From contig OZ242005.1 of the NCBI GenBank assembly GCA_965204725.1, positions 1,280,001 to 1,344,000 of the forward strand: DNA of 64,000 nt, written 5' to 3'. Of this stretch, positions 19,538-63,323 are shown piece by piece. Made by a program: the position numbers and the translations under genes. Numbering within the stretch: position 1 is the stretch's first letter; every line of letters starts with the position of its first letter. This DNA comes from Candidatus Latescibacterota bacterium. Its GTDB lineage: Bacteria; Latescibacterota; UBA2968; UBA8231. The notes under the pieces are model-generated. The model was not told the DNA's origin and did not search any database. It worked only from the letters and a program-made list of their open reading frames with translations.

Positions 19538-21865
19538 CTAGTAGGCCACGGCCACGACGCGCCTCGCGCTGCGCTCTCCGGCGTCGCCAGTGACTTGCAG
19601 TTCGGCTATGTAGAGGCCGGGCGGTACGCGCTGGCCGTCTAGGTCGCGGCCGTCCCAGTGATAGGCGATGTCGCCTGCCTGACCGGCCTGCTCTAGAATA
19701 AAAAGCGGCTGGCCGGACAAATCGTAGATCCGCAGGTGCAAGGGGCGGGCGGAAAGCACGTTGATGAGGTCGAAGGAGATGCGGAGTTGGTCGTTGATCC
19801 CGTCGCCGTTGGGCGTGATGAGCGCGGGGCTGAAAGAGAGGTCGGCAAAGAGTTGGTCGGCGATGGGCAGGCGCACGATGTTGGAGCTGCTCTCGACTTG
19901 GGGGGAGGCGTCGCCCGGATCGACGAGTTGTCGCGTCGGCGTCTTTTGGCTGTCTTCGAGAAAGGCGTCAAAGCGGGTCGCCTGCACATAGACCGGCGCG
20001 GTAAAGCGCAGCTCGACGAGTTGGCGGCTGCGAATGCGGCGCGGGAACGTGGCGCGAAAGCCCTGAGCGAGAGCCTCAACGGCGACCTCGACCCGCTCGC
20101 CATCGACCAAGGCGGCGTCAAAGTGGGGGACTGTGGAAGCTTCAATTGCGATCCGGTCGAAGCCGTCTTGGGTCGTTGTGGGCCGCAGGAAATAGGAAAA
20201 CAGGGTCCTTTGGCCGGGCGCGACCTCGAGGGGGAACACCTCGCCGACCACCTCGGCAGCCAGCGGGTCGCTGAAGTTGACGGCCAGCCAGTCGAAGCGG
20301 GGTGCCTGCGTGGGGCTGTCGGACACCAAGCGCACATCGAGTTCCATAAAGCGGCGCGGCGAAGGGGACAAAAAGGCCGCGCCCGAAGCGCGGTAGAGGT
20401 TGCTATAGGGGCTCCAGTCGGTCCCGGCGATGCGCGTAGTGTCGATTTTGCCCTTGAAACTGGGGATTAGTTTGCCGTAGCGCTTCTCGCTTACTTGCCG
20501 GCCGTTTTTATCGTAAAAGGTGTATTGCTCCACGACCTCGTTGCCCGTGCGCGAGCGGATTTCGATGTGAGTGCCCAATGGGGTCTGGGCCTGCCACTCA
20601 ATCGAGTTGAGATTTTTGCCGCGGCCCAAGTCAATCAGCGGCGAGCGGAGACGGACCGCGAGCGGATAGCCCTCGCCGTACACTTGGATTTCTTCGGCCG
20701 AGCCGTTGGCGTAGCAGCCCCAGCGCGAGGAGGCGTCGGGCAGGGCCGCAGCACAGGCGGCATCCCATATTAGCCAAACGATGCGGACGTAGCGGGCCGG
20801 TAGGGTGGGGAATTGGTGGTCGGCCAGCCCGGCGTTGTGGTTTTCGCTGCTCGCTTCCCCGGCAAAGTGCCGCGTCCATATTCGGGTGCCGTCGGGGGCG
20901 CTGGTGCCGTCCGAGGTGAGGACCTCGTAGTTTTTGTAGCTGAAGGAGCGCGAGCCGCTGGCCCCGGCCCGGGTGCGGAGGAGGTGTTCGCCAAAGCCGC
21001 CGCGGATGGCCACGCCGGTAATCAGGCGCACGAAATCCACTGGATAAACCGCCCCTAAGTCGATGGTGATGTGGCTGTAGGTGTTGTAGGTGTTGCGCGG
21101 CTCGCGCCCATTGCGCCAGCGGTCGAAGATGGAGCCATCCACTAGGTTGAGCGCGTTGCCCAAGGTAACCTCTTCGGCGCGGACAAAGGCGTCAATGACC
21201 ACGTCGATGGCCCCGCCGCGCTCGATGAGGTTGAGGATGAGGTTGTCGCCGATGCTCTCGACCTCAACGGCGACGAGCCGAGCGTTGGGAACGTGCTTGA
21301 GGTTGCGGATTTGCAGGTAGCGGATCGGCGTCAGGTAGAGCGCGTCGCCCGGGGCGTAGGCGACGCGGTGGCGCGTGTTTTCCTTAAAGCGTTCCTTAAT
21401 GCGGTAGATCAGGGAGCCGGCGACCGGATTGGCGACGTGGTCGAGCTGGGGCTCGCCGGCCGAGAGCAAGAGGTCGAACAGCTCAAAAGGGGGCGCGTCG
21501 TTGGCAAAGACGAGCGCGATGCTGTGCGCTGAGACGCTGCGGCCGAGGTCTATTTCCACGAACCAATCGGCCGGATCGTCCGTCGGGTTGGGTGCCCAGC
21601 CGGTCGCCGGGTTGCCGTCTAGGAGGGCGCGGGCGTCGCCGGGGTTGGAGCCGGCCCGATGGATGCCGCCGCCAAAAGCCGAGGCGTCGCGCACGGCATC
21701 CACGCCCTTTTGGACGCGCACGGGCTGGATTGCGCCGCTGGCCGCGATTTGGACCGCGCCCACCGGCACTTGCCAGTCGCGCCAATCGCGCCTCGAGTCA
21801 AAGCGCAACTGGTCCGCGCTCGCGCTACCGGCGAGCAAGACGAGGAGAGCGCAGGCCATGGACAT
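19538..21865 (-). CDS. Secreted protein, discoidin-like domains plus C-terminal FlgD-Ig/CHU_C-like domain (paralog 1, subtype A)
   Basis: Signal peptide ending ASA-DQLRFD; LLDGNPATGW..EIDLGR; ITPNGDGIND, IYDLSG, WDGRD..G..VPPGLY; ends VAVAY. Confidence 0.85.
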   Translation of the reverse strand: MSMACALLVLLAGSASADQLRFDSRRDWRDWQVPVGAVQIAASGAIQPVRVQKGVDAVRDASAFGGGIHRAGSNPGDARALLDGNPATGWAPNPTDDPADWFVEIDLGRSVSAHSIALVFANDAPPFELFDLLLSAGEPQLDHVANPVAGSLIYRIKERFKENTRHRVAYAPGDALYLTPIRYLQIRNLKHVPNARLVAVEVESIGDNLILNLIERGGAIDVVIDAFVRAEEVTLGNALNLVDGSIFDRWRNGREPRNTYNTYSHITIDLGAVYPVDFVRLITGVAIRGGFGEHLLRTRAGASGSRSFSYKNYEVLTSDGTSAPDGTRIWTRHFAGEASSENHNAGLADHQFPTLPARYVRIVWLIWDAACAAALPDASSRWGCYANGSAEEIQVYGEGYPLAVRLRSPLIDLGRGKNLNSIEWQAQTPLGTHIEIRSRTGNEVVEQYTFYDKNGRQVSEKRYGKLIPSFKGKIDTTRIAGTDWSPYSNLYRASGAAFLSPSPRRFMELDVRLVSDSPTQAPRFDWLAVNFSDPLAAEVVGEVFPLEVAPGQRTLFSYFLRPTTTQDGFDRIAIEASTVPHFDAALVDGERVEVAVEALAQGFRATFPRRIRSRQLVELRFTAPVYVQATRFDAFLEDSQKTPTRQLVDPGDASPQVESSSNIVRLPIADQLFADLSFSPALITPNGDGINDQLRISFDLINVLSARPLHLRIYDLSGQPLFILEQAGQAGDIAYHWDGRDLDGQRVPPGLYIAELQVTGDAGERSARRVVAVAY

Positions 21866-25154: not shown

Positions 25155-26759
25155 ATGACGACCACAACTATGCGTTTCTTCAATACGGCCGGCCCGATCA
25201 AGACGGACCTCCACTACCACGTTCCGTTGCTATCGCGGCTCGACCTCGACGATGTGCTGCTGCTCATTCGGCAGGAGAAGTACTTCGTCCTGCACGCGCC
25301 GCGGCAGACGGGCAAGACCTCGGCCTTGTTCGCCTTAAAGGACGCCCTGAACGCCAGTGGTGAATTCCGCTGCGTATATGCGAACATTGAGGCCGCCCAG
25401 ACGGCGCGCGAGGACGTCGCACGGGCGATGCGGGCGATCCTCGCCGAACTACAACTTGCGGCAGCCGATTTACTGGGCGATGAGGCGCGGATGGCCCGGT
25501 GGCCTGGGGTGCTGGAGGAGGTGGGGCCGGATGGCGCGCTCCGGGTCGCGCTGGCGCGTTGGGCGGCGGCCGACCCCAAGCCCTTGGTGCTGCTGCTCGA
25601 CGAGGTGGACGCGCTGGTCGGCGACAGCCTGCTGTCGGTGCTGAGGCAGCTCCGCGCTGGCTACCCCGACCGCCCGCGTCGCTTTCCCCAGAGCGTCATC
25701 CTCTGCGGGGTGCGCGACGTGCGCGACTACCGCATTCAGTCGTCCGCTGAAAACGCCATCATTGCCGGGGGTAGTGCCTTCAACATCCGCGCCGAGTCCC
25801 TGCGGCTTGGGGATTTTTCCCGGCCGGAGGTCGAGGCCCTGCTGGCGCAGCATACCGCCGTGACCGGCCAAGCGTTCACCGACGCGGCGCGACACGACGT
25901 CTGGACGCTGACCCAAGGCCAGCCGTGGCTGGTCAATGCGCTGGCGTATGAGGCCTGTTTTAAGAACAAGGCCGGGCGCGACCGTAGCCGGGCGATCACT
26001 GCCGATGCGATCCAAGACGCCCGCGAGCAGCTAATCCTGCGCCGCGAGACGCACCTCGACCAACTCACCGACAAGCTCCAAGAGGAGCGAGTGCGTCGCG
26101 TGATCGAGCCGCTGCTGAAAGGGGCCGATGACGCGGGATCGTTTGCCGACGACGACTTGCAGTACGTGCGCGACTTGGGCTTGGTCGCACAGCACCGCCC
26201 CGTCGCCATCGCCAACCCGATCTACCGCGAGGTCATCCCCCGCGCTCTCACCTGGACCACGCAGGAGATGTCGATCCACCACGACCCGGCTTGGTACGTC
26301 GATGACAGCGGTCGCTTGCAGGTGAGCAAGTTGCTGACGGCGTTCCAAGGGTTTTTCCGCGAGCATTCCGAGCACTGGGTGGAGCGGTTCCAGTACAAGG
26401 AAGCGGGGCCGCAGTTGCTGCTGCAAGCGTTCTTGCAGCGCATCGTCAACAGCGGCGGGCGCATTGAGCGCGAGTATGGCTTGGGTCGGCGTCGCACCGA
26501 TTTGCTGCTGGTGTGGCCGGTGGATAGAGATCGCGGTCGGCCGCAAAAGGTGGTCATTGAGTGCAAGGTGCTGCACGGGGGCTTTGAGCGGACGTTGCGC
26601 GAAGGGCTGGCGCAGACGCGCGCTTACATGGACCGCTGCGCTACGGCCGAGGGACACTTGGTGCTGTTCGACCGGAGCGAGGGCACGTCGTGGGACGACA
26701 AGGTGTATCGCCGCGAGGAAACCGAAGGGGGGGTGCCGGTCGCCGTGTGGGGGATGTGA
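25155..26759 (+). CDS. AAA-like ATPase with C-terminal PD-(D/E)XK-like domain
   Basis: RFFNTAGP, Walker A APRQTGKT, Walker B LLLDEVD, IEREYGLGRRRTDL...VIECK. Confidence 0.85.
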   Translation: MTTTTMRFFNTAGPIKTDLHYHVPLLSRLDLDDVLLLIRQEKYFVLHAPRQTGKTSALFALKDALNASGEFRCVYANIEAAQTAREDVARAMRAILAELQLAAADLLGDEARMARWPGVLEEVGPDGALRVALARWAAADPKPLVLLLDEVDALVGDSLLSVLRQLRAGYPDRPRRFPQSVILCGVRDVRDYRIQSSAENAIIAGGSAFNIRAESLRLGDFSRPEVEALLAQHTAVTGQAFTDAARHDVWTLTQGQPWLVNALAYEACFKNKAGRDRSRAITADAIQDAREQLILRRETHLDQLTDKLQEERVRRVIEPLLKGADDAGSFADDDLQYVRDLGLVAQHRPVAIANPIYREVIPRALTWTTQEMSIHHDPAWYVDDSGRLQVSKLLTAFQGFFREHSEHWVERFQYKEAGPQLLLQAFLQRIVNSGGRIEREYGLGRRRTDLLLVWPVDRDRGRPQKVVIECKVLHGGFERTLREGLAQTRAYMDRCATAEGHLVLFDRSEGTSWDDKVYRREETEGGVPVAVWGM

Positions 26760-26760: not shown

Positions 26761-26859
26761 GTAATGTTTAACGCGCAGGATTTCTTGCCGGGTTCCACCC
26801 TATTTAATATGCAGATTCTAACGCCTGCCCAAGCCATACGGCGGCTGAAGAAAGGATGA
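26761..26859 (+). pseudogene. C-terminal relic of PIN-family toxin
   Basis: VMFNAQDFLPGSTLFNMQILTPAQAIRRLKKG*, resembling the PIN_3 tail VTFNxxDFxPxxxxFGIxVLTPxxxL; ATGA overlap with the next gene. Confidence 0.65.
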
Positions 26860-27110
26860 AGATCATGGCTAGCACGAACCCGTATTCCCTCCATCTACTG
26901 GCCTCGCTCAAATCCGAGGCCGAAAAAGTGGCGGCAGCCGAGGGCACGACGCTAAACCAGTTTATCAACGTGGCCGTAGCGGAGAAGCTAGCGGCTTTGC
27001 GGACCGCCCGCTACTTCCAAGACCGGGCTGCTGGTGCCGATTTGGAGGCTTTTGACCGTCTCTTGGCAATGGCAGGTGATGAGCCACCGCGCCTTGAGGA
27101 TGAGATGTAA
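26856..27110 (+). CDS. RHH/HicB-like antitoxin
   Basis: YSLHLLASLKSEAEKVAAAEGTTLNQFINVAVAEKL. Start 26856 or 26865. Confidence 0.8.
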   Translation: MKIMASTNPYSLHLLASLKSEAEKVAAAEGTTLNQFINVAVAEKLAALRTARYFQDRAAGADLEAFDRLLAMAGDEPPRLEDEM

Positions 27111-27132
27111 AGTTACTCATGGACGAAGCAGT

Positions 27133-27375: not shown

Positions 27376-27376
27376 A

Positions 27377-27414: not shown

Positions 27415-27419
27415 GCTTT

Positions 27420-28181: not shown

Positions 28182-30098
28182 ATGCGAAAGACCTGTATCC
28201 GACTTGTGCTCGCCCTCGTTTGCCTGACTGGCGGCGCGGATGCGCTGACGATTTATCGGATCGGCGGGGCGTCGCTGCCGCGGCCGGAGTTGGCCGAGGG
28301 AGTGGAGTTTGTGCAGCTCGATTGGGGGGCGGTGGAAGCGGCCCAGCATGGCCACGTCGAATCCCTGAAAATCGATGCGGACTTCGTCGAGCCGGAGCAA
28401 CTGGACCCGTCGGTGAACCTGACGCCGCGCCTCAAGGAGCGCGGAGGCCGGGTGCAGACGCTGGTCTGGCGGGGCTGGGAGCAAAGCGGCGACACCGAGG
28501 CCGTGCTCTGGGACGAAGATGTCGAGACCGTTTTCTTGGGCGACGGGCACTGGACCACCTCGGGCATCGGCGTCCGCAACAAGAGCCTAATTTTCGAGTT
28601 CGGAGGCAACTTCACGGTGGAGCGCGTCAAGTTCTATCCGCGGGCGCGCTTTGAGGAAGAGCGTTTTCTCCAGCGCTTTATCATCGGCATCAGCGACGGC
28701 AACCCGCTCAAAGAGGGCACACGCGAGTACTCGGCCGGGACGCGCGGCTCCTTCTTCGACTTCGACATCGTGCATCAGGCCACGGAGAACACGACCTCGG
28801 TGGTCGAACTGGACCTGCCGCCGGTGCCGATCCGCCGCATGCTCTTTGAAGCCCCGGAAAACACTCAGGGCATCTGGGAAATCGCCGAGTTTGAAATCTA
28901 CGGCAAGGGCTTTACGCCCACGGCGCGCTACGTGTCCAATGTCCTCGATTTGGGCGGGCGAGCCGCGCTGGGCGAACTTAGCTGGGGTAGCCAAGTCGAT
29001 CCGGGCGCGCAAATTGAGCTGAGTATGCGCGCCGGCGACGACAGCGACCCCAACACCTATTGGCGCAGCACGTTCCGCGGCGATGAGCGGACTCGACTCG
29101 ATGCCCGGGGGCGGCCTTTGACCCGGCGGTCGTACAATCGGCTGGAGCGGGCGCAGCAGGCCGGAATGACGCCCGATACTGAAAACTGGGAAGGCTGGAG
29201 CGCGGCCTACGACTTGGCGCTGGGCAGCGCACCCATGCAGGGGACGCGACCGCGGCAATTCGTGCAGCTTAGGGCCCGCTTCCAATCTACGGTAGAGGCT
29301 GGTGGGCGGCTGAACTTCGTGCAATTCGCCGCGTCTAGGCCGCCGATGGCCTCCTTAGTTTCGGCCGAGATCGCGCCGACCCTAGCGCCGACGGGCGCGG
29401 CGACCGAGTTCACGTACATGCTGCTGCCGCGACTGGCGGCCGAAGACTTGGGTTTCGACGCCATTGAGATTGACACGCCGACCCAGGCCGAGGGCATTGA
29501 CGCGGTGCGCTACAGCGGCGAAGAGGTGGCCTTTGCGGTGCGACGGCTCGATGAGCGCGGCTTTGAGATTGAAGTGCCGCGGATCGATCAGGCCCGCGAT
29601 GGCGAGCTGATAGAAGTGGTCTTTCGCTGCGAGGTGTTCAAGTTCGGGACCCTGTTTGCCGGTCGCGTCCACGACAGCACGAGGCCGGGGGAAGTGCGCC
29701 AAGTGGTGACGCCGGGCGAGGTGGTCGAGCGGGTCGAGGGCAATACCCTGAGCGTGGGGCTGACCCAGATCGCCGAGCAGGTGGTCGGCGCGCTCCGGCT
29801 GGTGCCCGCCGCGTTCTCGCCCAACGGCGACCAGATCAACGACGCCGTGCGGATTGAATACGACTTATTGAATGTCAGCGGAAATGTCCAAGTAGCGGTG
29901 GTGCTCTACGATTTGCAGGGGGCGCGGCTCGGCGAGGTCTTCCGCGGCCCGGCGCAGAGCGGACCGTTTGCCGCCGTGTGGGATGGCCGGGACCCAACCG
30001 GCGCGCTGCTCGCGCCCGGGCTGTACGTCCTGCGCCTCGAAGTAGAGACCGACGGCGGCACCAAGGCCCGCTCGCGCATCGTCGCGCTGGCGTACTGA
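28182..30098 (+). CDS. Secreted FlgD-Ig/CHU_C-CTD protein (paralog 2, subtype B)
   Basis: Signal peptide ADA-LTIYRIGG; EIAEFEIYGKG; FSPNGDQIND, LYDLQG, WDGRD, APGLY; ends VALAY. Confidence 0.85.
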   Translation: MRKTCIRLVLALVCLTGGADALTIYRIGGASLPRPELAEGVEFVQLDWGAVEAAQHGHVESLKIDADFVEPEQLDPSVNLTPRLKERGGRVQTLVWRGWEQSGDTEAVLWDEDVETVFLGDGHWTTSGIGVRNKSLIFEFGGNFTVERVKFYPRARFEEERFLQRFIIGISDGNPLKEGTREYSAGTRGSFFDFDIVHQATENTTSVVELDLPPVPIRRMLFEAPENTQGIWEIAEFEIYGKGFTPTARYVSNVLDLGGRAALGELSWGSQVDPGAQIELSMRAGDDSDPNTYWRSTFRGDERTRLDARGRPLTRRSYNRLERAQQAGMTPDTENWEGWSAAYDLALGSAPMQGTRPRQFVQLRARFQSTVEAGGRLNFVQFAASRPPMASLVSAEIAPTLAPTGAATEFTYMLLPRLAAEDLGFDAIEIDTPTQAEGIDAVRYSGEEVAFAVRRLDERGFEIEVPRIDQARDGELIEVVFRCEVFKFGTLFAGRVHDSTRPGEVRQVVTPGEVVERVEGNTLSVGLTQIAEQVVGALRLVPAAFSPNGDQINDAVRIEYDLLNVSGNVQVAVVLYDLQGARLGEVFRGPAQSGPFAAVWDGRDPTGALLAPGLYVLRLEVETDGGTKARSRIVALAY

Positions 30099-30109
30099 GA
30101 GGAGCGGGA

Positions 30110-32746
30110 ATGCGCTGCATGGCCGTCGTTTTGCTAGGGGTCGCCGCGGTCCATGCCCAAGGAGGCTACCGGCTCACCGCCGACCAGCTCGTCATCGACC
30201 GCGCCGCGCACTGGCGCGCTTGGGAGTTTCCGGTGGGTACGCTGACGATCGATCCAAGCGGTGCGGTGACGCCGTTTGCCCTGCGCCGCAACATCGACGC
30301 CACCCAAGACATCGTCCACTTCTTGCGCCTGCATCCGCCCGAAGACCTCGCCCGGGACAAGGCCGTTGAGGCCATTGAACTCGCCGATGCCATAGAAGCG
30401 GGTTCCAACGCGCCCGGCGTGCTCAACGCGCTCGACGGGGACTTGGCGACCTACTGGGAGCCTGAGCCGGTCGGGGATGCTGCCGAGTTGGGTTCGCATT
30501 GGTGGTTTACCATCGATCTGGGCCGGTTGGTAATCGCCAAGCTCATCGTGCTCAAGTTCGTGGAAGAAGGGCGCGGCGATCCTTTCCTACAGTACGACGT
30601 GCTGATCTCCGACGGCGAGGTGCCGGAGAAGTTTATCTCTTCGGAGGAGCCGGAGTTCGATGTGGTGTGGCGCACGCTCAAGCCGAACAAGACCGAGCGG
30701 CGGCTGGAAATTTCCCTCGGCGAGCGCGCCGCCGCCGAGGAGCAGGAGCTGTCGGACCAGCCGCTCAACGCCCCGCCGACTTCGGCGGTTTCGACCGCGC
30801 AGCAAGAGTTCGTCGGCACTGGAGTGCGGCTGGTGCAGGTGGTGGTGCGCGGCTCGGATTTCGACCGCGGGTTCGAGGTCAGCCCGCCGGAGTACGAGGC
30901 GTTGCCGGCGGCTGAGCAGGGCGCGGTCGTCTATTCCAAGCTACAGCGCGACGGCCGTCGCACCGAGGTCGTTGCGGCCGATTACGCGCAGTTACCAGCC
31001 GACCAGCAGGGCGGGATCGCGTACTATCGCTGGGAGCGGCCCCGGCTGGCCGAACTCGAGGTTTGGCACGAGGGCGACGACGCGCTGATTGCCGCCTTGG
31101 CCCGGGGCGGCGACGTCTTTGCCTCGCAAGGGCTGCCCGTGGGACGGACCATCGACGGCAACGTGCAGACTTATGTCGATCTGATCTTCTCCTTCGACCG
31201 CCAGACCATTCCCGGTCCCGAAGGCCATTTGAGTTTCGACCTCGGCTCGACGTACTGGCTCGACACCTTTCGCATTGCCTACGGCGGCCAAGCGATCCGC
31301 GACCGCTTTAGCTTTCCCTCCTATCGGCTCGACGCCTCGGACGGGGCGCTCAATGCCGACGGCAGCCTCAAGTGGACCACTGTGGCCCGTCGCCAACAGT
31401 CGAGTACGCGCAAGGAATACGAGGGGCACGATTTCGGGCTGATTAAGACGCGCTTTTTTCGCATCGTGTGGGAGCAAATCATCGTGCCCGTCGGCGGGCA
31501 CCGGGGATTTCCCGCTTCGGTGCAGCTCTACGGCGAGGGGTTTCAGCCCGAGGTCTGGCTCGAGTCGGGCTTGGTGCGGCTGGGCGGGCGGCGGAATCTG
31601 CTGTCGATAGCATGGGACGCCGATGCGCCGCCGGGTACTCGGGTGCTGGTCCAGACGCGCACGGGCAATGAGTTGAGCGAGGTGCTGCACTATTTTAAGA
31701 AGGACGGCACGGAGATTTCCGAGAGGGAATACAACAATCCGACGCTCTTGGACATATTCAAGGGGCCGGTCGTCGCCGAGGAGGTGGAAGGGGATGACTG
31801 GAGCGGCTGGAGCCAGCCCTACGAGGACCCAACGGGCAGCGCGATTGCCTCGCCCAGCCCGCGCGAGTTCCTCAAGGTGCGAGCGACTCTGCTGTCTGAG
31901 GACCCGGCCATCCGCGCCGCGTTGCGGTCGATCCGCCTCAATTTTACCAGTCCGGTGGCCGAGGGGCTCGTCGGGGAGATCGCGCCGTTCCGGGTCGATT
32001 CGCTGGGCGTGGAGCGCTCCTTTTCTCTGTACGTGCGGCCGCAATTCAACCGCCGCGACCCGGGCTTCGATCAGTTGCTGCTGGTCGCGCCGGCCGATAT
32101 GACGCTCAGGTTTGCCGGGCTGTATGCGGGCCGAGTTGGGGCCGAGCGAGAAGTGGAGGGCGTTGAGGTCGTGCCTACGGGCGCGGACAGCTTGCGCCTC
32201 TCTTTTGCCGCGATTCGGCCCAATGCGGGCATTGAGGTCGTGCGCCTCGACTTTCGCACCGCGCTCTTTGGCATCGGCGCGGTGCTGCGTGCCTCATTGC
32301 AGCACAGTGCTGGGGGCGAGGGCACTTGGCAGCGGGTGGATCCGGGCAACGCGCTCGACGCGGTGGCGGGTAATACGACGACGCTGGTGGGCGATCCCAC
32401 ACGCGGGGACCTGCTGCTCGACGTGGAGGTGCGCCCGCCGGCCTTTACGCCCAATGGCGATGGGGTCAACGACCGTGCGGTTTTCGCCTTGAAGGTCGTG
32501 CGTCTCGACGACGATGGCCCGCTACAAGTCGCCATCTACGATCTGAGCGGTCGGCTGATGCGCCAACTTTCCGAGCAGCGAGCGACGACTACTGGGCAGT
32601 ACGAGATTGCTTGGGATGGCACGGACGAGCGGGGGGGGCGCGTCCCGCCGGGCGTGTATTGTGCGTTGCTCAGGGTGGCGGTGGACAGCGGGGGATTGAG
32701 CGCGGCGCGGACTGAGGTGTTGCGCACGGTGACGGTGGCCTATTGA
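30110..32746 (+). CDS. Secreted FlgD-Ig/CHU_C-CTD protein (paralog 3, subtype A)
   Basis: RBS AGGAG, signal peptide; HWRAWEFPVG; TIDLGR; QTRTGNE; SPSPREFL; FTPNGDGVND; ends VTVAY. Confidence 0.85.
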   Translation: MRCMAVVLLGVAAVHAQGGYRLTADQLVIDRAAHWRAWEFPVGTLTIDPSGAVTPFALRRNIDATQDIVHFLRLHPPEDLARDKAVEAIELADAIEAGSNAPGVLNALDGDLATYWEPEPVGDAAELGSHWWFTIDLGRLVIAKLIVLKFVEEGRGDPFLQYDVLISDGEVPEKFISSEEPEFDVVWRTLKPNKTERRLEISLGERAAAEEQELSDQPLNAPPTSAVSTAQQEFVGTGVRLVQVVVRGSDFDRGFEVSPPEYEALPAAEQGAVVYSKLQRDGRRTEVVAADYAQLPADQQGGIAYYRWERPRLAELEVWHEGDDALIAALARGGDVFASQGLPVGRTIDGNVQTYVDLIFSFDRQTIPGPEGHLSFDLGSTYWLDTFRIAYGGQAIRDRFSFPSYRLDASDGALNADGSLKWTTVARRQQSSTRKEYEGHDFGLIKTRFFRIVWEQIIVPVGGHRGFPASVQLYGEGFQPEVWLESGLVRLGGRRNLLSIAWDADAPPGTRVLVQTRTGNELSEVLHYFKKDGTEISEREYNNPTLLDIFKGPVVAEEVEGDDWSGWSQPYEDPTGSAIASPSPREFLKVRATLLSEDPAIRAALRSIRLNFTSPVAEGLVGEIAPFRVDSLGVERSFSLYVRPQFNRRDPGFDQLLLVAPADMTLRFAGLYAGRVGAEREVEGVEVVPTGADSLRLSFAAIRPNAGIEVVRLDFRTALFGIGAVLRASLQHSAGGEGTWQRVDPGNALDAVAGNTTTLVGDPTRGDLLLDVEVRPPAFTPNGDGVNDRAVFALKVVRLDDDGPLQVAIYDLSGRLMRQLSEQRATTTGQYEIAWDGTDERGGRVPPGVYCALLRVAVDSGGLSAARTEVLRTVTVAY

Positions 32747-38915: not shown

Positions 38916-38941
38916 AGAAAATGCGTACTGAGGAGACCGAT

Positions 38942-55287: not shown

Positions 55288-56190
55288 ATGCGGAAGAAAG
55301 CAATACTCAGCACCCTAGCCCTCGGCAGTGTGCTGCTGATGGGCCTTGCGGCCCCAGCCGCAGCGTACGAAAACTGCAACGGCGTTGGCTATTTTGCCCT
55401 GCAGGTGCCCAACCCAGAATCCATGAACCCCGATGGCGATGACAGCGACTGGGGTTGGTTCGACCCCGACTTCATCATCGGTCGCGACCAACTGTGCGAC
55501 GTGATCGGCGCAGGTGAGTTTCCAGCGCGCAGCGACCTCGACATCGCTCACCACGTGGGCTGGACCCCCGAGCCGGACAATCGGCTCTACGTATTTACGC
55601 GCGTCGTCGATGACACGCTCAACGCCGACGTCACCGAGCCGAACGACGGCTGGCACGACGACGACCTAGAGCTGATTCTCGATCCCGATCACGGAGTGTG
55701 GAACGAGGCACCGGACGCCCTCCGCACCGGGCACCAGCAGTGGACCTTTCACTACGCTCGCCCCGGTGGGTATCCCCTCGTATCCTTCCTGCGCTGGAAC
55801 CAGCCGACCGAGATGCAATGGGGCCCCGAGTCCGGGGCTGTTGAGGGGGCGGTCGTGGTCTCTCCAGCGGGCGCCGGGCACTTGTCCACGGACGTGACGG
55901 TGAATTACGAGGTTCGCATGGAGGCCTACGACCCGTACCAGCCAGATGGGCGCGACGCCAGCGTCCGCTGGATCTTTGAAGCAGGCCAGACGATTGGTAT
56001 GTCCCTGAGCCTCAATGAGGCGGACAGTGGCGGGCGAACCCACCAAATCACGACGCACATCCAAAACGGCGGTGCTCATAGTTCGGAATTCTCTTCCGAG
56101 TTCACCTTGCTGAGCACCGATGAGTACACTGCTACTGCTACTTCCGTCGATGGGAGTAGTTGGGGCGCAGTGAAGGCGTTGATGAGGTAA
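55288..56190 (+). CDS. Secreted CBM9/DOMON-like protein with C-terminal TSVxxxSWGxVK motif
   Basis: Signal peptide AAA-YEN; DGDDSDW, NRLYVFTRVVDD, DDLELILD; ends TSVDGSSWGAVKALMR. Confidence 0.75.
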   Translation: MRKKAILSTLALGSVLLMGLAAPAAAYENCNGVGYFALQVPNPESMNPDGDDSDWGWFDPDFIIGRDQLCDVIGAGEFPARSDLDIAHHVGWTPEPDNRLYVFTRVVDDTLNADVTEPNDGWHDDDLELILDPDHGVWNEAPDALRTGHQQWTFHYARPGGYPLVSFLRWNQPTEMQWGPESGAVEGAVVVSPAGAGHLSTDVTVNYEVRMEAYDPYQPDGRDASVRWIFEAGQTIGMSLSLNEADSGGRTHQITTHIQNGGAHSSEFSSEFTLLSTDEYTATATSVDGSSWGAVKALMR

Positions 56191-56285: not shown

Positions 56286-57008
56286 TTGCGAGTGCTTTGT
56301 ACCTGCCTATTGATCTTGGTCGCGTCCGGCTGTGGGCGCTACTTCCCGGGGCCTCTCCAGCCCCGACCTCGGGCCGAGCAGGGCGAACACATGGTGGTCC
56401 ACGATGACGGATCCGTCGCCTATGTCTTTGAGCGGCTCGACATCGCACTCCGACCGATGACGGACGCGGAGCTCAACCGTAGTTTTGCCACGAAGTCGGA
56501 CGCCGGAGCGCAGTCCACCAACCCCTTCACCTTCGGTGATTGGACCCCCCCCGGAGAGTCGTTTACACCCCAGCGATTTACCGTATTCCTGCTTCGGGTT
56601 AAAAACTATGCGTATCCGAAGGTCAAGATCGATCCGGCGCGGATCGAGTTGCAATCCTCCAGTGCGCGTTTGTACAAGCCCCTGACCTTTCTCGAAATCA
56701 GCGAGTACTACCGAGCGTATGCGTTGGCTTGGGCCGGAAACTACTATGCGCGCATGCGCGAGCGCGAGGATCTGCTGCGTCTCCATCTATATGCCGACAA
56801 GATGATCTTCAGTGGCCAAGAGTACGAAGGCTTTATCGTATTTCCGCCCATGCCCCCGGACGTGACCGAGTTGTCCATTCGAGTCAGCGACGTCGCGGTT
56901 CGTTTCGACTACGCTGACGTGCCGGTGGAGACCCTCGATCTGACCTACGGATTCCAACGCGACGTCTTTAGGGGCTACCAGCCACCCGCCGCCGTTTCGG
57001 CCCGCTGA
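56286..57008 (+). CDS. Lipoprotein of unknown function
   Basis: LVASGC lipobox; NPFTFG, FTVFLLRVKNY, GFIVFP. TTG start. Confidence 0.75.
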   Translation: MRVLCTCLLILVASGCGRYFPGPLQPRPRAEQGEHMVVHDDGSVAYVFERLDIALRPMTDAELNRSFATKSDAGAQSTNPFTFGDWTPPGESFTPQRFTVFLLRVKNYAYPKVKIDPARIELQSSSARLYKPLTFLEISEYYRAYALAWAGNYYARMREREDLLRLHLYADKMIFSGQEYEGFIVFPPMPPDVTELSIRVSDVAVRFDYADVPVETLDLTYGFQRDVFRGYQPPAAVSAR

Positions 57009-57009
57009 C

Positions 57010-58878
57010 GTGCCCCGCACAGCCAAACGCGCACTGGTTCTGACGTTCCTCCTGAGCATTGATGCGGGCGGCCAGATCGAGACCGTGCGCATTGGGCAGG
57101 GTGGCGACCCTTGGCAGAGCATGGAGCTAGTGGCTGCGGGGGCGCAGGTCACGGCCGACTCGCTGCTACCGGCCGGCTTCACGGCCGATGAAAACATTGT
57201 TGCCGCCGTGCGCTGGACGGATGTCGGAACAGGCCCGGACGAGTTCATCCCCGAGGGCGGAGGCCGGGTGTGGGCGCGCGTTGCCGACGGTCAGCCCAAT
57301 GGCGTTCTCGTTGATGGCAATCCCAACACATCCACTGGGGAGCGATTTCAGATTCCCGGCCAGTCTCAGGACGGTCGGATCTTCGTCTTCGATTTGGGAG
57401 CCTCGTTTCCGGTCGAACGAATAGCCTTCTACCCCAACCCAGCCGATAGCACCGCCTTCCTGCGAGCCTACGAAGTTAAGGCGAGCGACGGGCGCTCTTT
57501 TGGCACGGGCGAGCGGCCGATCTACGAGACCCTAGCCCGGGTCGAGATTTCCAACAAGGTTCGGACGGAGGCCGAGTTTCCACGACAACTCGTCCGCTAT
57601 ATCCGCTTGGAAACGCTCGAACCGAATCCCTTTGACATCGCCGAGATCGAGGTGTTTGGCCGGGGGTTTGTCCCCCGTGCTCAGTACGTCTCCGACTTCA
57701 TTCGCTTCGATGGCGGCGGGCGTAACTTTGGTCGCCTGACGGTCCACGCGACCCGCGTGTCCAACGAGCCTGCCGTAGCTTCGGCCGACCCAGTGCAGGC
57801 GGTGCTCCAAGTGCGAGCGGGCAACGACACTTCGCCGGAGTCCTACTTTCAGATCGATCTCGAAACCGGCAGTGAGACCGAGATCTCGGAGGAGGCGTAC
57901 CAAAACCTCATCGACCGCGAGCGCACGGCGCGATACGATGCCGCAAACTGGAGTGCGTGGTCCAATCCGGTGGTGATCGATTCGACCGGCTCCTACGAGA
58001 TCAGTCTCGATTTTCTGCCGATGCCGCGGCCCTTCTTCCAGTTCCGATTTTTCTTTGAGGGCACTGCGACCGACGTGATTCGGATCGATGCTTTGGAGTT
58101 CACCCACTCGGCCCCCCTCGCTCAAGGGACGCGAGCCGAGGTCGCCCTCGTCGGCGATCCCTTTCCGCAGACCGGCGTGGCCACCGTCGCGACTGGGCAG
58201 CCCGCGACCTTTGAGTACGCCTTGGCGGCGGAGTTGTCGGGCGACGAGGGGTTCGATGGTTTGCGGATCGCAACGCTGGGCACGGCTCAGTTGGAGTCGG
58301 TGTCAATCGGCGACGACCGCACACAAGTGGTCGTCGATAGCGTCGCGTACGACGACCGCGGCCTGTCGTTCTTCTTCCCGAGCCGCCCAATCACGGCCGC
58401 GAGCAACGCTACGCTCTTTGTGCGGTTTACAGCAACGCCCCTGCGATACACGACCCTGTTCCAAGGTTGGCTCCTCAGTTCAGCGGGGGCGGTTCCGCAG
58501 CGGGTTGCTCCCGGCGATGCCACCAACCTGCTCAGCACGAATTCCGTCGTGGTCTTTGGTTCGCTTGGCGATCCCCTGAGCCGATTCAATCTGGGGGCTG
58601 GGGTCGTGACGCCGAATGGGGATGGCCGGAACGACGACTTGGTGCTGCAGTACGACCTCGTATTCCTCATCGAACCAGCGCGAGTGGGCATTACCGTTCA
58701 CGATCTATCGGGTCGGCTCGTTCACACCTTTCTGCAAGCGGAGCAGGCGGCCGGCAGCTACCTAGCCAGATGGAGCGAGGCCCACAAGCTGCGGCCGGGG
58801 CACTACATCGTCCGCCTGCACGTCGAAACGCAGGCCGAAGCGTTTGAACGCCTCCGACTCGTGGCGGTGTCCTACTAA
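57010..58878 (+). CDS. Secreted FlgD-Ig/CHU_C-CTD protein (paralog 4, subtype B)
   Basis: VRIGQGG; VFDLG; IAEIEVFGRG; WSAWS; VTPNGDGRND; ends VAVSY. Confidence 0.85.
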   Translation: MPRTAKRALVLTFLLSIDAGGQIETVRIGQGGDPWQSMELVAAGAQVTADSLLPAGFTADENIVAAVRWTDVGTGPDEFIPEGGGRVWARVADGQPNGVLVDGNPNTSTGERFQIPGQSQDGRIFVFDLGASFPVERIAFYPNPADSTAFLRAYEVKASDGRSFGTGERPIYETLARVEISNKVRTEAEFPRQLVRYIRLETLEPNPFDIAEIEVFGRGFVPRAQYVSDFIRFDGGGRNFGRLTVHATRVSNEPAVASADPVQAVLQVRAGNDTSPESYFQIDLETGSETEISEEAYQNLIDRERTARYDAANWSAWSNPVVIDSTGSYEISLDFLPMPRPFFQFRFFFEGTATDVIRIDALEFTHSAPLAQGTRAEVALVGDPFPQTGVATVATGQPATFEYALAAELSGDEGFDGLRIATLGTAQLESVSIGDDRTQVVVDSVAYDDRGLSFFFPSRPITAASNATLFVRFTATPLRYTTLFQGWLLSSAGAVPQRVAPGDATNLLSTNSVVVFGSLGDPLSRFNLGAGVVTPNGDGRNDDLVLQYDLVFLIEPARVGITVHDLSGRLVHTFLQAEQAAGSYLARWSEAHKLRPGHYIVRLHVETQAEAFERLRLVAVSY

Positions 58879-58903
58879 GAGCAGGCAAGGGGAGGGGAAA
58901 ACT

Positions 58904-60973
58904 ATGCACACGCGCACCATGCTCACCGCAACGTTTCTGCTGGTCGCAACCGCTGTTGCGGCCTACGGTCAGCGCCGCGTCGTGCAGATCGGCGGGGCTG
59001 GGGGGGATTTCTCGTGGTCTGAGGTGCGCCAAGAGGCCGTCGCCCTCGATGACACCACCGCGCCGGGCGCGTTGCAGCCCAGAGAGCTGCGGCCGTGGGA
59101 GAACATCATGGTCGGACCCGGGCTATTCGCCAACATATTCGGCTTGTCTTGGGCAGAGGGACAGACCACTGGCCGGGCCTTTGGTTTCGCGGCCGGCGTT
59201 GACCCGCGATTTTGGCACGGTGGGTTCAGCCGCGAGGAGGCCGTGATCATCGATGGCGATCCCGAGACGGCGATCTCGTTGCGTCAGCTCATCGGCGAGG
59301 GGCCGGTGGAAGTATTCAACCAAGTTCTGCGCCTGCAGGAAGAGGTTTGGACCTTTGATTTGGTCTTGGAGACGCCGATCAACCGAATTTTGTTCTTCCC
59401 TCGGCAATCGGGGGTTGATAAGCGCGGCATCCCCAACAAGCAGGGATCGCCGCGGGCCTATCGTCTTTCAATACAGAACGAGGCCGAGGATTTTCTGCTC
59501 GAAGGCTCGGAGCCGATTCCCAAGCGGACGCTGGCCACCGTCATCGAGGAAACCAAGTCCAACACGAAAAGCCAAGTCGATGTCAGCTTTCCGGTGCAGC
59601 CGGCCCGGTTCATCCGTCTCGATCTGAGTTTGGCGGACCAGTTTTACAGCATGGCCGAGTTCCAAGTCTATGGCGAGGGTGTCCCGACGAAGGTCCGCTA
59701 CGTTTCCACCGCCATTCCACTCGGCGAGCCGGTCAACTTCGGCGAGATTACCTATTCCTTCCGCTCGCTTCGACGCGGCCGGGAAGCGGACGCGCTCATC
59801 GACGACCCCGAGGGTGCTGCCCGGCTGCTCCTCGAAGTGCGTTCCGGCACCGACGACACGTCCCTCGCTTACTACATCGTAGATGACTTCGGGCGCGACA
59901 AGGAAGTGACCCAGACGGAATGGCAGCGCGCCTCCCTGCCCCGGCGGGAGAGTCTCGCCGTCCGCTATCCCAATCAGCGCAGCGTCGTCCTCGACGACGA
60001 GACCAACTGGTCGCCGTGGTCTTCGCCCTATCGCTCATCCGGTCAGTTGAACCGAGCCCCGGATGGGCGACCGTATTTGCAGTTTCGGGCGACGTTCCTG
60101 ACCGACGATGTGCTGTCCATCGGTCGTCTCGACTCGCTCCAGTTCGAGGTCTCGCCCTTGCTCGCCGCGTCGCTTTTCGGCGAGGTCTCCCTCGCGGATG
60201 CGGCCCCGACCGCCTTGACGACCGAGGCGCAGCCGGCCGAATTCCCCATTGGAGAGCGCCGTCGGCTCCACTTCGACATTGCGGCCGACTTCGCCCGCGA
60301 TTCACAGGGGTTTGATGCGGTGCGGTTGACCGTCCCTTTTGGCACTCGCTTTGAGGGGCTGCGGATGGGCGATGCCGATCTCGTCTCGGTAGTGCCCGAC
60401 AGCGTGTGGCCCGGGGACGGAATTGCCCGCGATGGCGAGCTTTTCATCTCCTTTGCCACCAACCGGGTGTCGCCCAGCCATGATCGCCCTGTCCGCATCG
60501 ATCTCGAATCCTCCCTGTTTACCTCTTCCACGATCTTCGCCGGCGAGGTCATTGACTCGGCCAGCGACAACCTGCCCCAGTCGGTGAACGGGGGAAATGC
60601 GAGGGATGATGTCGCCACGAACAGTTTGCAGGTCTTCTCGGGCGATGCGAGGACGACTGTTCTCGATGGGGTCCGCCTCGCGCCGGCGGTTCTGACGCCG
60701 AATGGAGACCGGGTGAACGACGAAATCCGCGTTGAGTTCAGCGTCCTCTTCGTGGATGAAGCCGCGGTGACCGTGACGATCTACGATGTGGCCGGACGCT
60801 ATGTTGCGGTGCTGCCGGCTGAGAACCGGGGCCGATCGGCCCAGCAGGTAGCTTGGGACGGGCGCGACGACGACCGCAACTTGGTTCCTCCGGGCCTGTA
60901 TCTGCTGCAGATCGAAGTGGATACCCAAAGGGAGACCGCACGACGATTGCTGACAGTGCCCGTCGTCTATTAA
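58904..60973 (+). CDS. Secreted FlgD-Ig/CHU_C-CTD protein (paralog 5, subtype B)
   Basis: Signal peptide; VQIGGAGG; AEFQVYGEG; WSPWSSPY; LTPNGDRVND; WDGRD; ends VPVVY. Confidence 0.85.
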   Translation: MHTRTMLTATFLLVATAVAAYGQRRVVQIGGAGGDFSWSEVRQEAVALDDTTAPGALQPRELRPWENIMVGPGLFANIFGLSWAEGQTTGRAFGFAAGVDPRFWHGGFSREEAVIIDGDPETAISLRQLIGEGPVEVFNQVLRLQEEVWTFDLVLETPINRILFFPRQSGVDKRGIPNKQGSPRAYRLSIQNEAEDFLLEGSEPIPKRTLATVIEETKSNTKSQVDVSFPVQPARFIRLDLSLADQFYSMAEFQVYGEGVPTKVRYVSTAIPLGEPVNFGEITYSFRSLRRGREADALIDDPEGAARLLLEVRSGTDDTSLAYYIVDDFGRDKEVTQTEWQRASLPRRESLAVRYPNQRSVVLDDETNWSPWSSPYRSSGQLNRAPDGRPYLQFRATFLTDDVLSIGRLDSLQFEVSPLLAASLFGEVSLADAAPTALTTEAQPAEFPIGERRRLHFDIAADFARDSQGFDAVRLTVPFGTRFEGLRMGDADLVSVVPDSVWPGDGIARDGELFISFATNRVSPSHDRPVRIDLESSLFTSSTIFAGEVIDSASDNLPQSVNGGNARDDVATNSLQVFSGDARTTVLDGVRLAPAVLTPNGDRVNDEIRVEFSVLFVDEAAVTVTIYDVAGRYVAVLPAENRGRSAQQVAWDGRDDDRNLVPPGLYLLQIEVDTQRETARRLLTVPVVY

Positions 60974-60977
60974 GGAA

Positions 60978-63323
60978 ATGACTATGAAAACAACAAGCCG
61001 CATCGCCTTGGCCGCGTGGCTGCTGTCTGGGTACGCGGGGGCCGATGAGTTGCGCTTTGAGCGTCTCAGCGACTGGCGGGAGTGGACGAGCCCGACGGGG
61101 GCCATTCAGTTGCGGCAAGACGGGAAAGTCGAGCTGGGGTGGTACGGAACGGACACCGACCCGATGGATGACATGACCCAGTTCTCGCACCCCACCCGAA
61201 AAAGCGGCGAAGTCTTTGGGGGTCTGACGGCCCAGTCGAACGACCGCGAGGCCCGGTTTCTCGCCGATAACGACCGCGACACGTGGTGGCAGCCCGACGC
61301 CGGGGCCGATCCCAACAATGCTTGGATACACATTGACCTAGGCCGCGTCGTCTTGCTCAAGGAGATTCGCTTGGTCTTTCCAGACACGCTCGGCCTGCGT
61401 CCCTTCCGCGATTTCTCGGTTTTTGTCAGCGAAGGTTCGACCGTGTCTTCGTCGGCCGATGTCTGGCGATTTCAGCGCGTCTTTACGACCACCGAGCCCA
61501 ACGAGTTGGGCGAGATCGTCATTCCCTTGTCGATTGAAGATTTCGGCACCATTGCGACCGGCGAGAATCTGGTCCGGGGCAAGTTGCTAGACTTCATGCC
61601 CGTCCACTACGTCCGCTTCCTGCCCCACGAGGCCGGAGAAGGCGCGGCGCTGGCCGAGATCGAGTTGACTGCGGTCGGCGATAATATCGCGTTGACGACC
61701 TTTGAACGAGGGGGGACTATTCGCTCGGGGCTGAAAAAAGTGGAAGAAATCCGCGATGGAACCGTGGACAATGCTTGGCCGGTAATTTCAAATACCCTCA
61801 ATCGCTTCTGGCAGGACGGCGGGATGTGGTTTGAGTGGGACTTGGGGGCCCTCTTCCACGTCAGCCGGATCGTGTTCTACCAGTGGCCGCCCGATCAGCT
61901 CGGGCGCACGACATTCGGAATCGGCGGAACCAACACCGGCTACAACTTGGAGATGACAGACGGGACGCCGATCGCCCGGGACGACCCATTCCGCAGCCCA
62001 TTCGACTACACGCGCGTTTCGCTGGTTGACAACAGCCGAGCACCGGGACGCTACGTCTTTGACCATCAGTTAGAGGACCGAGTCGGCCGCTATCTGTTCT
62101 GGAACCACCGGGACATCGAGGACCGAAGAGTTGGATATATCATGCTGGAGGTATTCATCTATTCGGCGGGCTACCCGGCCCAAGCGGCCTTGACCTCCGA
62201 CTTCATCGATCTCGGGGGGGCCAAGAGCATCACGGGGGTCTCGTGGGACGCCGACACCCCGCCGGGGACCCGAATCACCGTGCAGACGCGCACGGGCAAT
62301 GAACTCGACGCGGATCAGTTCTTCTTCAAGAAAAACGGAGAGCAGATCACCGAGGCGCAGTACAACAAGCTACCCAAAGTGGTCCGGGGCGAAATCGTCG
62401 AAGTGCCCAAGGAGGGGGCGGACTGGAGCGGTTGGAGTGAGCCGCACCTTGCGTCGGGCCAGCCCTTTCGGTCGCCCACCCCTAGACAACTGTTGCGAAT
62501 GCGGGTGAGTTTAGAGACCGACGATCCCAACATCACGCCGGTCCTCAACTCGGTGACGCTGCACTTTGACGAAGCCTTGGTGCAAAAAGGCGTTGAGGCC
62601 GCGATTTATCCACGGGAGGCGACCGCTGGCGAGTGGCAGGACTTTCGCTACGTGCTGCAACCGACCTTTACGGCCAGAGACCGAGGCTTCGATCGCGTGC
62701 TGCTGCCCGTGCCGGGGGCCGTGCGGAACGTGTCGTTGCGCGTCAATGGCGCGGCGGTCGAGGGCGCGGTCGAATCGACCGTAGATACGCTCGTCATCGC
62801 CATGCCCCGGCGCGTACTGCGGGACTCAGTGGAGGTAATGTTCACGGCGCGCCCCCTGAACAACCCCACTCGCTTCCTCGCCGCCGTGGCGAACTCGGCG
62901 CAACCGGATAACCTGCAAGAGGTGCGGCCGCCCGATGTCGATGACGATGGCGATGGCCAGTTCGATCGCACGGACCGGGAGGCCCTCTTCGTCTTTTTAC
63001 CCAACACAGCTACCGGCAGTACTATCCGCAACCTCGTGGTATCGAGCCGCGTCATCACGCCCAACGGCGACGCGGTCAACGACGACTTGCGCGTTACCTT
63101 CGATCTATTTCGCACCAAAGTTGCCGCTGAGCTGCGGCTCTACAACGTAGCGGGGCGTTTGCTCCGGGTCGTCTCCGGCCAAGCGGGGGAGACGCAGCAA
63201 CTCGTGTGGGATGGCATGGTCAACGATCAGCCGGCGGAACCGGGAATCTACATCTGCCGCGTAGCGGTGCCGGCCGACGCCGGGCTGGCTACCGAAGTCC
63301 TGCTGGTGAGTGTAGCCTACTAG
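60978..63323 (+). CDS. Secreted FlgD-Ig/CHU_C-CTD protein (paralog 6, subtype A)
   Basis: AGA-DELRFERLSDWREW; HIDLGR; QTRTGNE; SPTPRQLL; ITPNGDAVND; ends VSVAY. Confidence 0.85.
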   Translation: MTMKTTSRIALAAWLLSGYAGADELRFERLSDWREWTSPTGAIQLRQDGKVELGWYGTDTDPMDDMTQFSHPTRKSGEVFGGLTAQSNDREARFLADNDRDTWWQPDAGADPNNAWIHIDLGRVVLLKEIRLVFPDTLGLRPFRDFSVFVSEGSTVSSSADVWRFQRVFTTTEPNELGEIVIPLSIEDFGTIATGENLVRGKLLDFMPVHYVRFLPHEAGEGAALAEIELTAVGDNIALTTFERGGTIRSGLKKVEEIRDGTVDNAWPVISNTLNRFWQDGGMWFEWDLGALFHVSRIVFYQWPPDQLGRTTFGIGGTNTGYNLEMTDGTPIARDDPFRSPFDYTRVSLVDNSRAPGRYVFDHQLEDRVGRYLFWNHRDIEDRRVGYIMLEVFIYSAGYPAQAALTSDFIDLGGAKSITGVSWDADTPPGTRITVQTRTGNELDADQFFFKKNGEQITEAQYNKLPKVVRGEIVEVPKEGADWSGWSEPHLASGQPFRSPTPRQLLRMRVSLETDDPNITPVLNSVTLHFDEALVQKGVEAAIYPREATAGEWQDFRYVLQPTFTARDRGFDRVLLPVPGAVRNVSLRVNGAAVEGAVESTVDTLVIAMPRRVLRDSVEVMFTARPLNNPTRFLAAVANSAQPDNLQEVRPPDVDDDGDGQFDRTDREALFVFLPNTATGSTIRNLVVSSRVITPNGDAVNDDLRVTFDLFRTKVAAELRLYNVAGRLLRVVSGQAGETQQLVWDGMVNDQPAEPGIYICRVAVPADAGLATEVLLVSVAY

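Follow-up and report, generated by a model that had tools for sequence, protein, structure and literature searches.

Our analyses showed that six open reading frames (ORFs) in a 64-kb stretch of a Latescibacterota genome encode members of a large family of proteins that share a C-terminal domain (CTD) ending in tyrosine, here called the Tyr tail. The stretch, referred to as the window, is the whole of G000:C1:1280001-1344000 in a 5.43-Mb genome assembly of two contigs that is 94% complete. Proteins exported through a type IX secretion system (T9SS) carry C-terminal signals that are sorted into type A, handled by PorV and PorU, and type B, which go with PorP/SprF-type barrels; this division comes almost wholly from work on Bacteroidota. 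The Tyr tail is a clear homolog of the type A T9SS tails encoded in the same genome, and its genes are coupled, both in the genome and over the phylum, to genes for a predicted large outer-membrane barrel of about 880 residues. We propose that the six genes are members of a single family of discoidin-bearing, lectin-type envelope proteins of Latescibacterota, which is old, has been duplicated many times and is exported by Sec. In these proteins, a type-B-like arrangement of cargo and barrel would be realized on a type-A-like fold, and the tail would be a form of the type A tail that is peculiar to this lineage. As a whole, we consider this explanation about equally likely to be right or wrong.

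All six genes were found as ORFs where an initial annotation of the window, made from the letters alone, had placed them, and the ORF list, translations and an alignment (A1) agreed with the motifs and termini that it described. The starts it gave at 30110 and 58904 are in-frame ATG codons directly before signal-like segments, within longer ORFs. For P0001, the likely start is an ATG at 21865, which gives a protein of 775 residues with orthologs of 773–775 residues. In our reading, each family protein is built from one or two discoidin-type modules, a region midA with a W..S motif, a region midB with a GFD motif and a tail of roughly 100 residues. The six proteins show 25–34% identity to the first sequence of the alignment. 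Their invariant columns are P-N-G-D..N-D, G, W, P-G-x-Y and the terminal Y in the tail and, upstream, GFD together with the W and S of a WSxWS-like stretch, which from P0001 to P0006 reads DWSPYS, NWEGWS, DWSGWS, NWSAWS, NWSPWS and DWSGWS. The motifs [TS]PNGDxxND, [YH][DN]xxG and PGxY occur in every copy and WDG in five, the copy at 57010 alone being without it.

The N-termini read as signal-peptide-like in all six translations, as annotated before; a home-made signal-peptide heuristic discriminated poorly, being positive for 98 of 104 family members and for 611 of 965 control genes. The discoidin modules, also part of the initial annotation, were recovered by Pfam (PF00754/PF22633) above cut-off in three copies only, namely P0001 with 42.5, P0003 with 33.8 and P0006 with 30.2 bits (PF22633). 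P0004 fell just below (27.4 versus a cut-off of 28.2 bits), and for P0002 and P0005 a Pfam discoidin match was not found at E ≤ 0.1, while both align with the other copies in this region. A hidden Markov model (HMM) of the aligned discoidin region matched 89 of the 104 family members.

Beyond the window, the family was counted with an HMM built from the last 109 alignment columns, with which the ORFs of the genome were searched at E < 1e-3. It matched 185 ORFs. All 102 matches of at least 64 bits end in Tyr, against a background of 4.3% among 4436 ORFs of at least 250 residues, and in 99 of them the match reaches the last residue. With two weaker, Tyr-ended matches added, the family comprises 104 ORFs and 4.4% of the genome; because this set is partly defined by the final Tyr, 102 of 102 is the independent figure. 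The large genome-wide expansion anticipated from six divergent copies was thereby borne out. The consensus of the tail end is [RG]-x-[VIL]-x-[VLI]-[AV]-Y. In other genomes, 115 of the 120 listed homologs of P0001 end in Tyr and three in Phe; the remaining two are shorter proteins of 752 and 573 residues, in which the match covers 65–74% of P0001. Source databases name the homologs “hypothetical”, “gliding motility-associated C-terminal domain-containing” or “T9SS type A sorting domain-containing”, and the source names of the records are Latescibacteria or Latescibacterota, in keeping with the earlier placement outside Bacteroidota.

Identity between tails has a median of 34% and ranges from 19 to 97%. 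Since the median is this low, the family is old and does not stem from a recent burst. On the same median, and because the copies fall into old clades whose cassette position is conserved, recent tandem amplification was rejected as its origin.

The fold of the tail was modeled from the last 120 residues of P0001 with a 26-sequence alignment. The model, with a predicted local distance difference test (pLDDT) score of 93.3, is a seven-strand immunoglobulin (Ig)-like sandwich, in which the strand 1–2 loop holds PNGDGIND and the strand 3–4 loop an invariant Gly. On structural re-alignment, the top match was the PorU CTD (residues 1054–1157; Z 12.9, root-mean-square deviation 2.5, 99 residues aligned), about 1.5 Z units above generic Ig and Fn3 rows, and the PorZ CTD reached Z 10.4. 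Foldseek listed C5a-peptidase Fn3-like domains, FlgD, PorZ and PorU, with Pseudomonas aeruginosa FlgD (3osv) at E 4e-5 and 26% identity. The predicted structure therefore resembles both T9SS CTDs and the FlgD Ig-like domain, as the initial annotation had supposed. At the profile level, hhalign paired the 104 Tyr tails with 51 type A-like tails of the same genome at a probability of 99.4% (E 1e-21, 72 columns), the last strand lying outside the aligned block.

Like the type A CTD (TIGR04183/PF18962; structures solved for RgpB, HBP35, PorU and PorZ), the Tyr tail is modeled as a seven-strand sandwich, stands at the very end of Sec-exported proteins and has the YDxxG(R) and PGxY motifs as well as the Gly of the strand 3–4 loop. 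In this loop also sits the one conserved residue of L-beta3-beta4, a T9SS motif required for function, according to the available part of PMC11285876. The two differ at either end of the domain. Where type A tails have PNPFN, the Tyr tail has PNGDGxND, and the C-terminal motif with its conserved Lys, described as important for T9SS function in the same source (PMC11285876), is replaced by [VLI]-[AV]-Tyr. Moreover, unlike type A tails, the Tyr tail is limited to one passenger family that is encoded with a giant barrel. The FlgD Ig-like domain (PF13860) has YDxxG, WDG and PGxY in common with the Tyr tail; its flagellar hook-cap context, however, was not seen around the Tyr-tailed genes, and this fold family has many unrelated uses, long tandem arrays included.

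The genome encodes T9SS components. SprA (485+116 bits) and PorU (623 bits) were above their cut-offs, and directly beside PorU lies a PorV-like gene with 150 bits versus a cut-off of 250; a PorZ-like gene scored 157 versus 260 bits. For PorP/SprF (TIGR03519), there were only two weak matches of 44 and 43 bits versus a cut-off of 90.55, and GldK reached 66 versus 350 bits and was matched at its FGE-sulfatase-type domain only. The T9SS-related pathway suggested before thus finds part of its components here, as regards SprA, PorU and a PorV-like gene, whereas PorP/SprF and GldK stay weak or at domain level. Ordinary type A cargo is also encoded: 51 of the 81 other tail-HMM matches end like K-x-x-L-x-[KR], and since the six sampled from this class all passed TIGR04183 with 34–41 bits versus a cut-off of 23, we regard them as such cargo. 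The remaining matches end in K[TM]TKLP (15), KMVKIE (7) or in miscellaneous ways (8). The K[TM]TKLP tails form a sharply defined class, as do the KMVKIE tails, and 14 of the 15 K[TM]TKLP ORFs belong to one passenger family in tandem arrays. These further classes are found, for example, at G000:C1:2167275-2193779, 998131-1004750 and 4877866-4900423.

Within the genome, the Tyr-tailed genes are linked to a barrel family. Its member in the window, P0127, gave a model of almost all strands (pLDDT 72.5), of which all best Foldseek matches were outer-membrane barrels (MtrB, SlpA, FimD/PapC and LptD; E 1e-9 to 1e-6). As no match was obtained in Pfam or PDB sequences, the model makes P0127 a predicted large barrel outside known families. 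It is in the size class of MtrB with MtrA/MtrC, LptD with LptE, the FimD/PapC ushers and Deinococcus SlpA, but it differs from them in having no sequence relative in PDB or Pfam and in an Asp/Asn-rich loop at residues ~500–590. In P0127 (L021:378-3017), this long insert is highly conserved, with runs such as DDNDDQD and DENxDxISDFNQN and a pLDDT of about 40; it looks like calcium-binding repeats.

There are 37 barrel paralogs, accounting for 1.9% of the genome. In 36 of them a family gene lies at most five genes away, and in 22 it is adjacent; conversely, a barrel is found within five genes of 69 of the 100 called family genes. Likewise within five genes, 21 of the 37 barrels have a gene for a two-PPIC-domain protein. 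In the family tree, copies that stand at the same place with respect to the barrel cluster together, as in the P0004 clade, whose copies are all three genes from a barrel. For the window's trio at 57010-63323 there are three sets of paralogs with the same gene order, and of 15 related loci in other genomes, 14 have a barrel preceded by three Tyr-ended genes. Complex prediction for the barrel (residues 23–879) with the P0006 tail, run without controls, scored 0.00, which carries no weight either way.

A similar logic is known from type B systems. There, cargo requires a cognate barrel that is encoded adjacently and its CTD stays uncleaved, as shown for SprB-SprF and PG1035-PorP in the available parts of PMC12618676 and PMC9143113. 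Like type B CTDs (SprB-SprF; PG1035-PorP-PorE), the Tyr tail has PNGDGxND and matches CHU_C, and cassette cargo genes likewise stand directly upstream of their own barrel gene, with orphan cargo genes in both systems. In both, too, longer upstream regions accompany the tail, as far as described in PMC12618676 and PMC9143113. In contrast, the Tyr tail is modeled as a full seven-strand sandwich, whereas the type B models presented in PMC12618676 show a four-strand sheet. The partner differs as well: instead of a PorP/SprF barrel of the FadL type with about 330 residues and 14 strands, the cassettes encode a ~880-residue barrel of no known family. A FadL-type PorP/SprF barrel of ~300 residues was not found beside cassette cargo, the neighbor having ~880 residues and no Pfam match. 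The family member at G000:C1:252264-254918, an atypical one that is Tyr-ended and long-branched and has neither midA nor the discoidin region, has one of the two weak PorP/SprF-like genes (249156-249953) at a distance of ~2.3 kb; it is the only Tyr-ended gene near a classical type-B-style partner.

Over the phylum, we searched 151 genomes for the barrel (E ≤ 1e-10), the Tyr-tailed family (E ≤ 1e-25) and SprA (E ≤ 1e-10), and found them in 96, 93 and 146 genomes, respectively. The barrel accompanies the family in each of the 93 genomes that carry it; three genomes carry only the barrel, and 55 carry neither. In the 50 genomes of families f2, f3 and f4, many of which are complete, neither was found. 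The Tyr-tailed family hence follows the barrel, not the SprA translocon, although the genomes, being related, do not count independently and a few gains or losses alone may account for the pattern. SprA was found in 90 of the 93 family-bearing genomes. One of the exceptions, G015, is 96% complete and gave no SprA match above 21 bits but PorU with 603 bits; the other SprA-negative genomes are 64–80% complete. A carrier of the family without any T9SS was not found among the 151 genomes. A single-protein scan with the barrel returned close relatives only. Two of these records are titled Gemmatimonadetes, and as one of them is 92% identical to records with Latescibacterota titles, we read the title of that one as a labeling difference.

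In the explanation that we favor, the tail would have arisen from a FlgD-Ig-like type A T9SS CTD, such as those used on the ordinary T9SS cargo of the same genome, by two changes. One would be the replacement of PNPFN near its start by the PNGDGxND loop, and the other that of the Lys motif by [RG]-x-[VIL]-x-[VLI]-[AV]-Tyr-COOH. Sec would carry Tyr-tailed proteins over the inner membrane and the SprA translocon over the outer one, whereupon the cognate ~880-residue cassette barrel might take them over in place of PorV and PorU. The tail would then stay uncleaved and keep the protein at the cell surface, and its free C-terminal aromatic residue may be what docks. The SurA-like peptidyl-prolyl isomerase (PPIase) encoded alongside could assist assembly. 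A role in surface glycan capture is likely because sulfatase, ABC sugar-uptake and sugar oxidoreductase genes surround the family genes, which makes glycans the presumptive ligands.

Several of our results weigh against this explanation. No copy in the window reaches the NCBI cut-offs of either tail class, neither that of TIGR04183 for type A (23 bits; 14.0–21.3 for the five proteins listed) nor that of TIGR04131 for type B (35 bits; 13.5–22.1 for the five listed). TPNGDGxND, previously read as a marker of type B, goes here with a predicted seven-strand, type-A-like fold. CHU_C and FlgD_ig both match the same C-terminal stretch in all six proteins with scores around cut-off. On full-length proteins, CHU_C (PF13585) exceeds 27 bits in two (33.0 and 28.3) and gives 17.0–23.0 in four, and PF13860 is at or over 27 bits in three (27.0, 28.0 and 31.5) and at 15–26 in the others; at E ≤ 0.01 they match 25 and 24 of the 26 tails, respectively. 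At E ≤ 1e-3, the tail profile finds 185,818 cluster representatives, and this domain type also occurs internally, as all 150 best profile matches carry 5–35 tandem copies. In ten tandem-copy proteins that we scanned, FlgD_ig and CHU_C again match together, and three of these end in OmpA domains. Both motif sets thus belong to a single, widely distributed Ig-like module that is covered by two overlapping Pfam models. Because this module is often internal, the motif pair alone does not mark a sorting signal, and the label “hybrid sorting domain” in the initial annotation was overstated.

Nor does the Tyr tail behave as a portable tag. The passenger parts of 103 family proteins form one BLAST cluster, compared with 24 clusters for 50 type A-like proteins. 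Of the 104 copies, 102 contain midA and 103 midB, which elsewhere in the genome have one match and none, respectively. The Tyr tail hence behaves as a fixed part of one protein family. Searched against PDB sequences, the midA and midB profile found nothing credible (best E 0.073, a gasdermin), and against the Atlas it matched unnamed clusters only. The barrel, for its part, resembles MtrB, SlpA, FimD/PapC and LptD at low template-modeling scores of 0.15–0.36 and is not PorP/SprF-like, and 31 of the 100 called family genes, three of the six in the window among them, have no barrel within five genes. GldL, GldM and GldN were unmatched in this 94%-complete genome, a negative that is uncalibrated, the control genomes being without a T9SS. 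With SprA near-universal and GldL, GldM and GldN unmatched, either a divergent motor or a differently driven T9SS translocon might be at work, as far as this uncalibrated negative goes. Since SprA is nearly universal, also in genomes without the family and in all 50 genomes of families f2–f4, its co-occurrence with the family is silent on T9SS dependence.

An alternative would be outer-membrane export or assembly that is independent of the T9SS. The ~880-residue barrel would then be a conduit or platform in the manner of ushers, LptD or MtrB, to which the SurA-like PPIase delivers subunits, and the Tyr-ended last strand of the tail would engage it as a donor strand or like a beta-signal. The family does follow the barrel, not SprA, and the barrel's structural matches MtrB, FimD/PapC and LptD are large barrels that enclose or pass proteins. 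The neighboring genes for two-PPIC-domain proteins and the unmatched Gld proteins fit in as well, as does a tail of alternating hydrophobic residues with a terminal aromatic one (Tyr in 102 of 102, Phe in three of the 120 listed homologs), which may resemble the beta-signal of outer-membrane proteins. We nevertheless think that this is unlikely, because the tail is a folded Ig-like domain homologous to type A tails and structurally closest to the PorU CTD, almost all family genomes have SprA, the well-assembled exception G015 keeps PorU, and nearly a third of the copies lack a nearby barrel. The most far-reaching version of this idea, to which we likewise assign a low probability, sees Tyr-tailed lectins, ~880-residue barrels and SurA-like PPIases as an unrecognized, T9SS-free display or uptake machine of the outer membrane. 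Here the tail would have been re-used for barrel docking via its terminal aromatic residue, and three lectins per barrel might form a glycan-capture complex that takes the place of the SusC/SusD-type systems of Bacteroidota.

It may also be that the tail is no targeting signal at all. As an Ig-like stalk, spacer or oligomerization module of a lectin family it would be purely structural, with the terminal Tyr kept for folding and the barrel serving as a co-regulated glycan channel. The frequency of this domain type as an internal repeat, in some proteins with an OmpA end, agrees with such a role. So does the absence of the tail from other passengers in this genome, and Ig/Fn3 domains of glycosidases and peptidases follow close behind PorU in the structural matches at Z 10–11. 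Yet the tail is fixed in position, with 99 of 102 matches ending on the last residue, and that residue is invariant among copies of only ~34% identity, which points to a role for the free C-terminus. Homologous type A-like tails, moreover, sit on 24 unrelated passenger families in the fashion of sorting tags. We therefore hold a purely structural tail to be quite improbable. Less probable still to our mind is ordinary type A cargo, recognized by PorV, cleaved by PorU and then linked to the surface or released. The seven-strand fold, the PorU and PorZ CTD matches and the conserved loop Gly would all be expected of it; TIGR04183 matches 16 of the 26 tails at E ≤ 0.01, and NCBI names one homolog “T9SS type A sorting domain-containing protein”. 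But none of the six copies reaches the TIGR04183 cut-off (14–21 versus 23 bits), which the sampled type A-like tails of the same genome all pass. The tail end also has no Lys, with [VLI]-[AV]-Y instead of K-x-x-L-x-[KR], a motif of importance according to the accessible portion of PMC11285876. Finally, the exclusive coupling to one barrel family would be left unexplained.

Taken as a class of its own, the Tyr tail is a third, sharply defined type of tail in another phylum within the Fibrobacteres-Chlorobi-Bacteroidetes (FCB) group. Its fold is type-A-like and its loop motif type-B-like, its last residue is an invariant Tyr, and it goes with a single protein family and with giant barrels that have no known relatives. 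Together, Tyr-tailed proteins and barrels take up about 6% of the genome (4.4% and 1.9%), so that the two families probably play a central part in how these bacteria, which are uncultured and apparently feed on glycans, interact with their surroundings. If the barrel indeed acts as acceptor or conduit, it would add to the means by which surface proteins are known to be anchored or exported, and the tail would offer a sequence rule by which the surface lectins of a whole phylum could be listed. Among the papers available to our literature search, none was found that treats type IX secretion or the T9SS together with Latescibacteria or Latescibacterota, and in the accessible part of the 2015 Latescibacteria genome paper no mention of T9SS was found.

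Table 1. Tyr-tailed genes, the modeled tail and cassette genes in the window. Coordinates are window positions unless noted otherwise.
Feature	Position	Strand	Remarks
P0001, family member, orphan copy	19538..21904	−	two discoidin-type modules, midA, midB, Tyr-ended tail; ends VAVAY
P0001, last 120 residues, Tyr-ended CTD (modeled part)	19541..19900	−	ends VAVAY
P0002, family member, first of gene pair	28182..30098	+	638 residues; ends VALAY
P0003, family member, second of gene pair	29978..32746 (ORF); in-frame ATG at 30110	+	~878 residues; ends VTVAY
Exported protein, cassette gene 1	55288..56190	+	300 residues; weak CBM9-like match; ends SSWGAVKALMR
Predicted lipoprotein, cassette gene 2	56286..57008	+	240 residues; LVASGC lipobox in translation; no family match
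P0004, family member, third gene upstream of barrel	57010..58878	+	622 residues; ends VAVSY
P0005, family member, second gene upstream of barrel	58844..60973 (ORF); ATG at 58904	+	~689 residues; ends VPVVY
P0006, family member, directly upstream of barrel	60978..63323	+	781 residues; ends VSVAY
P0127, barrel gene	63378..64000 in window, runs on to C1:1346017	+	879 residues; predicted outer-membrane barrel

The trio and its barrel are part of a longer cassette (Table 1). In paralogous cassettes, the position of the first gene is likewise taken by a gene for ~300–340 residues and that of the second by one for ~240–300 residues. The end SSWGAVKALMR of the first product differs from the Tyr tail and looks conserved. 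Downstream of P0127 follow genes for a 561-residue protein with two PPIC-type rotamase domains and for a 400-residue TPR protein. For the single gene at 19538, a barrel gene was not found within five genes, nor is there one near the pair at 28182-32746; their paralogs are nonetheless arranged alike, and pairs in the same order as the latter lie at C1:4015229-4019804 and within 5282977-5291486.

Amid the family members, the region 33355-55131 is a glycan-use neighborhood. It holds two sulfatases (33355-34809 and 38921-40381), two solute-binding proteins, four ABC permease genes, a DUF6785/DUF6784 membrane protein (43359-45473), a DUF3604 protein, a TPR protein and an FG-GAP/ASPIC (CRTAC1-like) protein (53407-55131), and GFO/IDH/MocA oxidoreductases are also found in the surroundings of family genes. 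An Rfam scan of the 64-kb window gave no match, and among six listed sequencing runs that contain the stretch there was no RNA run. Directly upstream of the copy at 28182, small mobile-type genes occupy 26856-28105, namely those for a DUF2283 protein and for a Gp49-like toxin with its HTH_37 antitoxin-like partner, preceded by a gene for an AAA-type ATPase at 25155-26759. Nearer the start of the window, a DNA-modification and restriction-type cluster spans 3492-18190 with an N6_N4 methylase, an Eco57I-like methylase, a 1044-residue methylase-domain protein and a 1091-residue ResIII/SNF2-type helicase. This cluster is interrupted by metabolic genes and by a gene for a 578-residue sigma-70-type protein with a long C-terminal extension (7953-9689).

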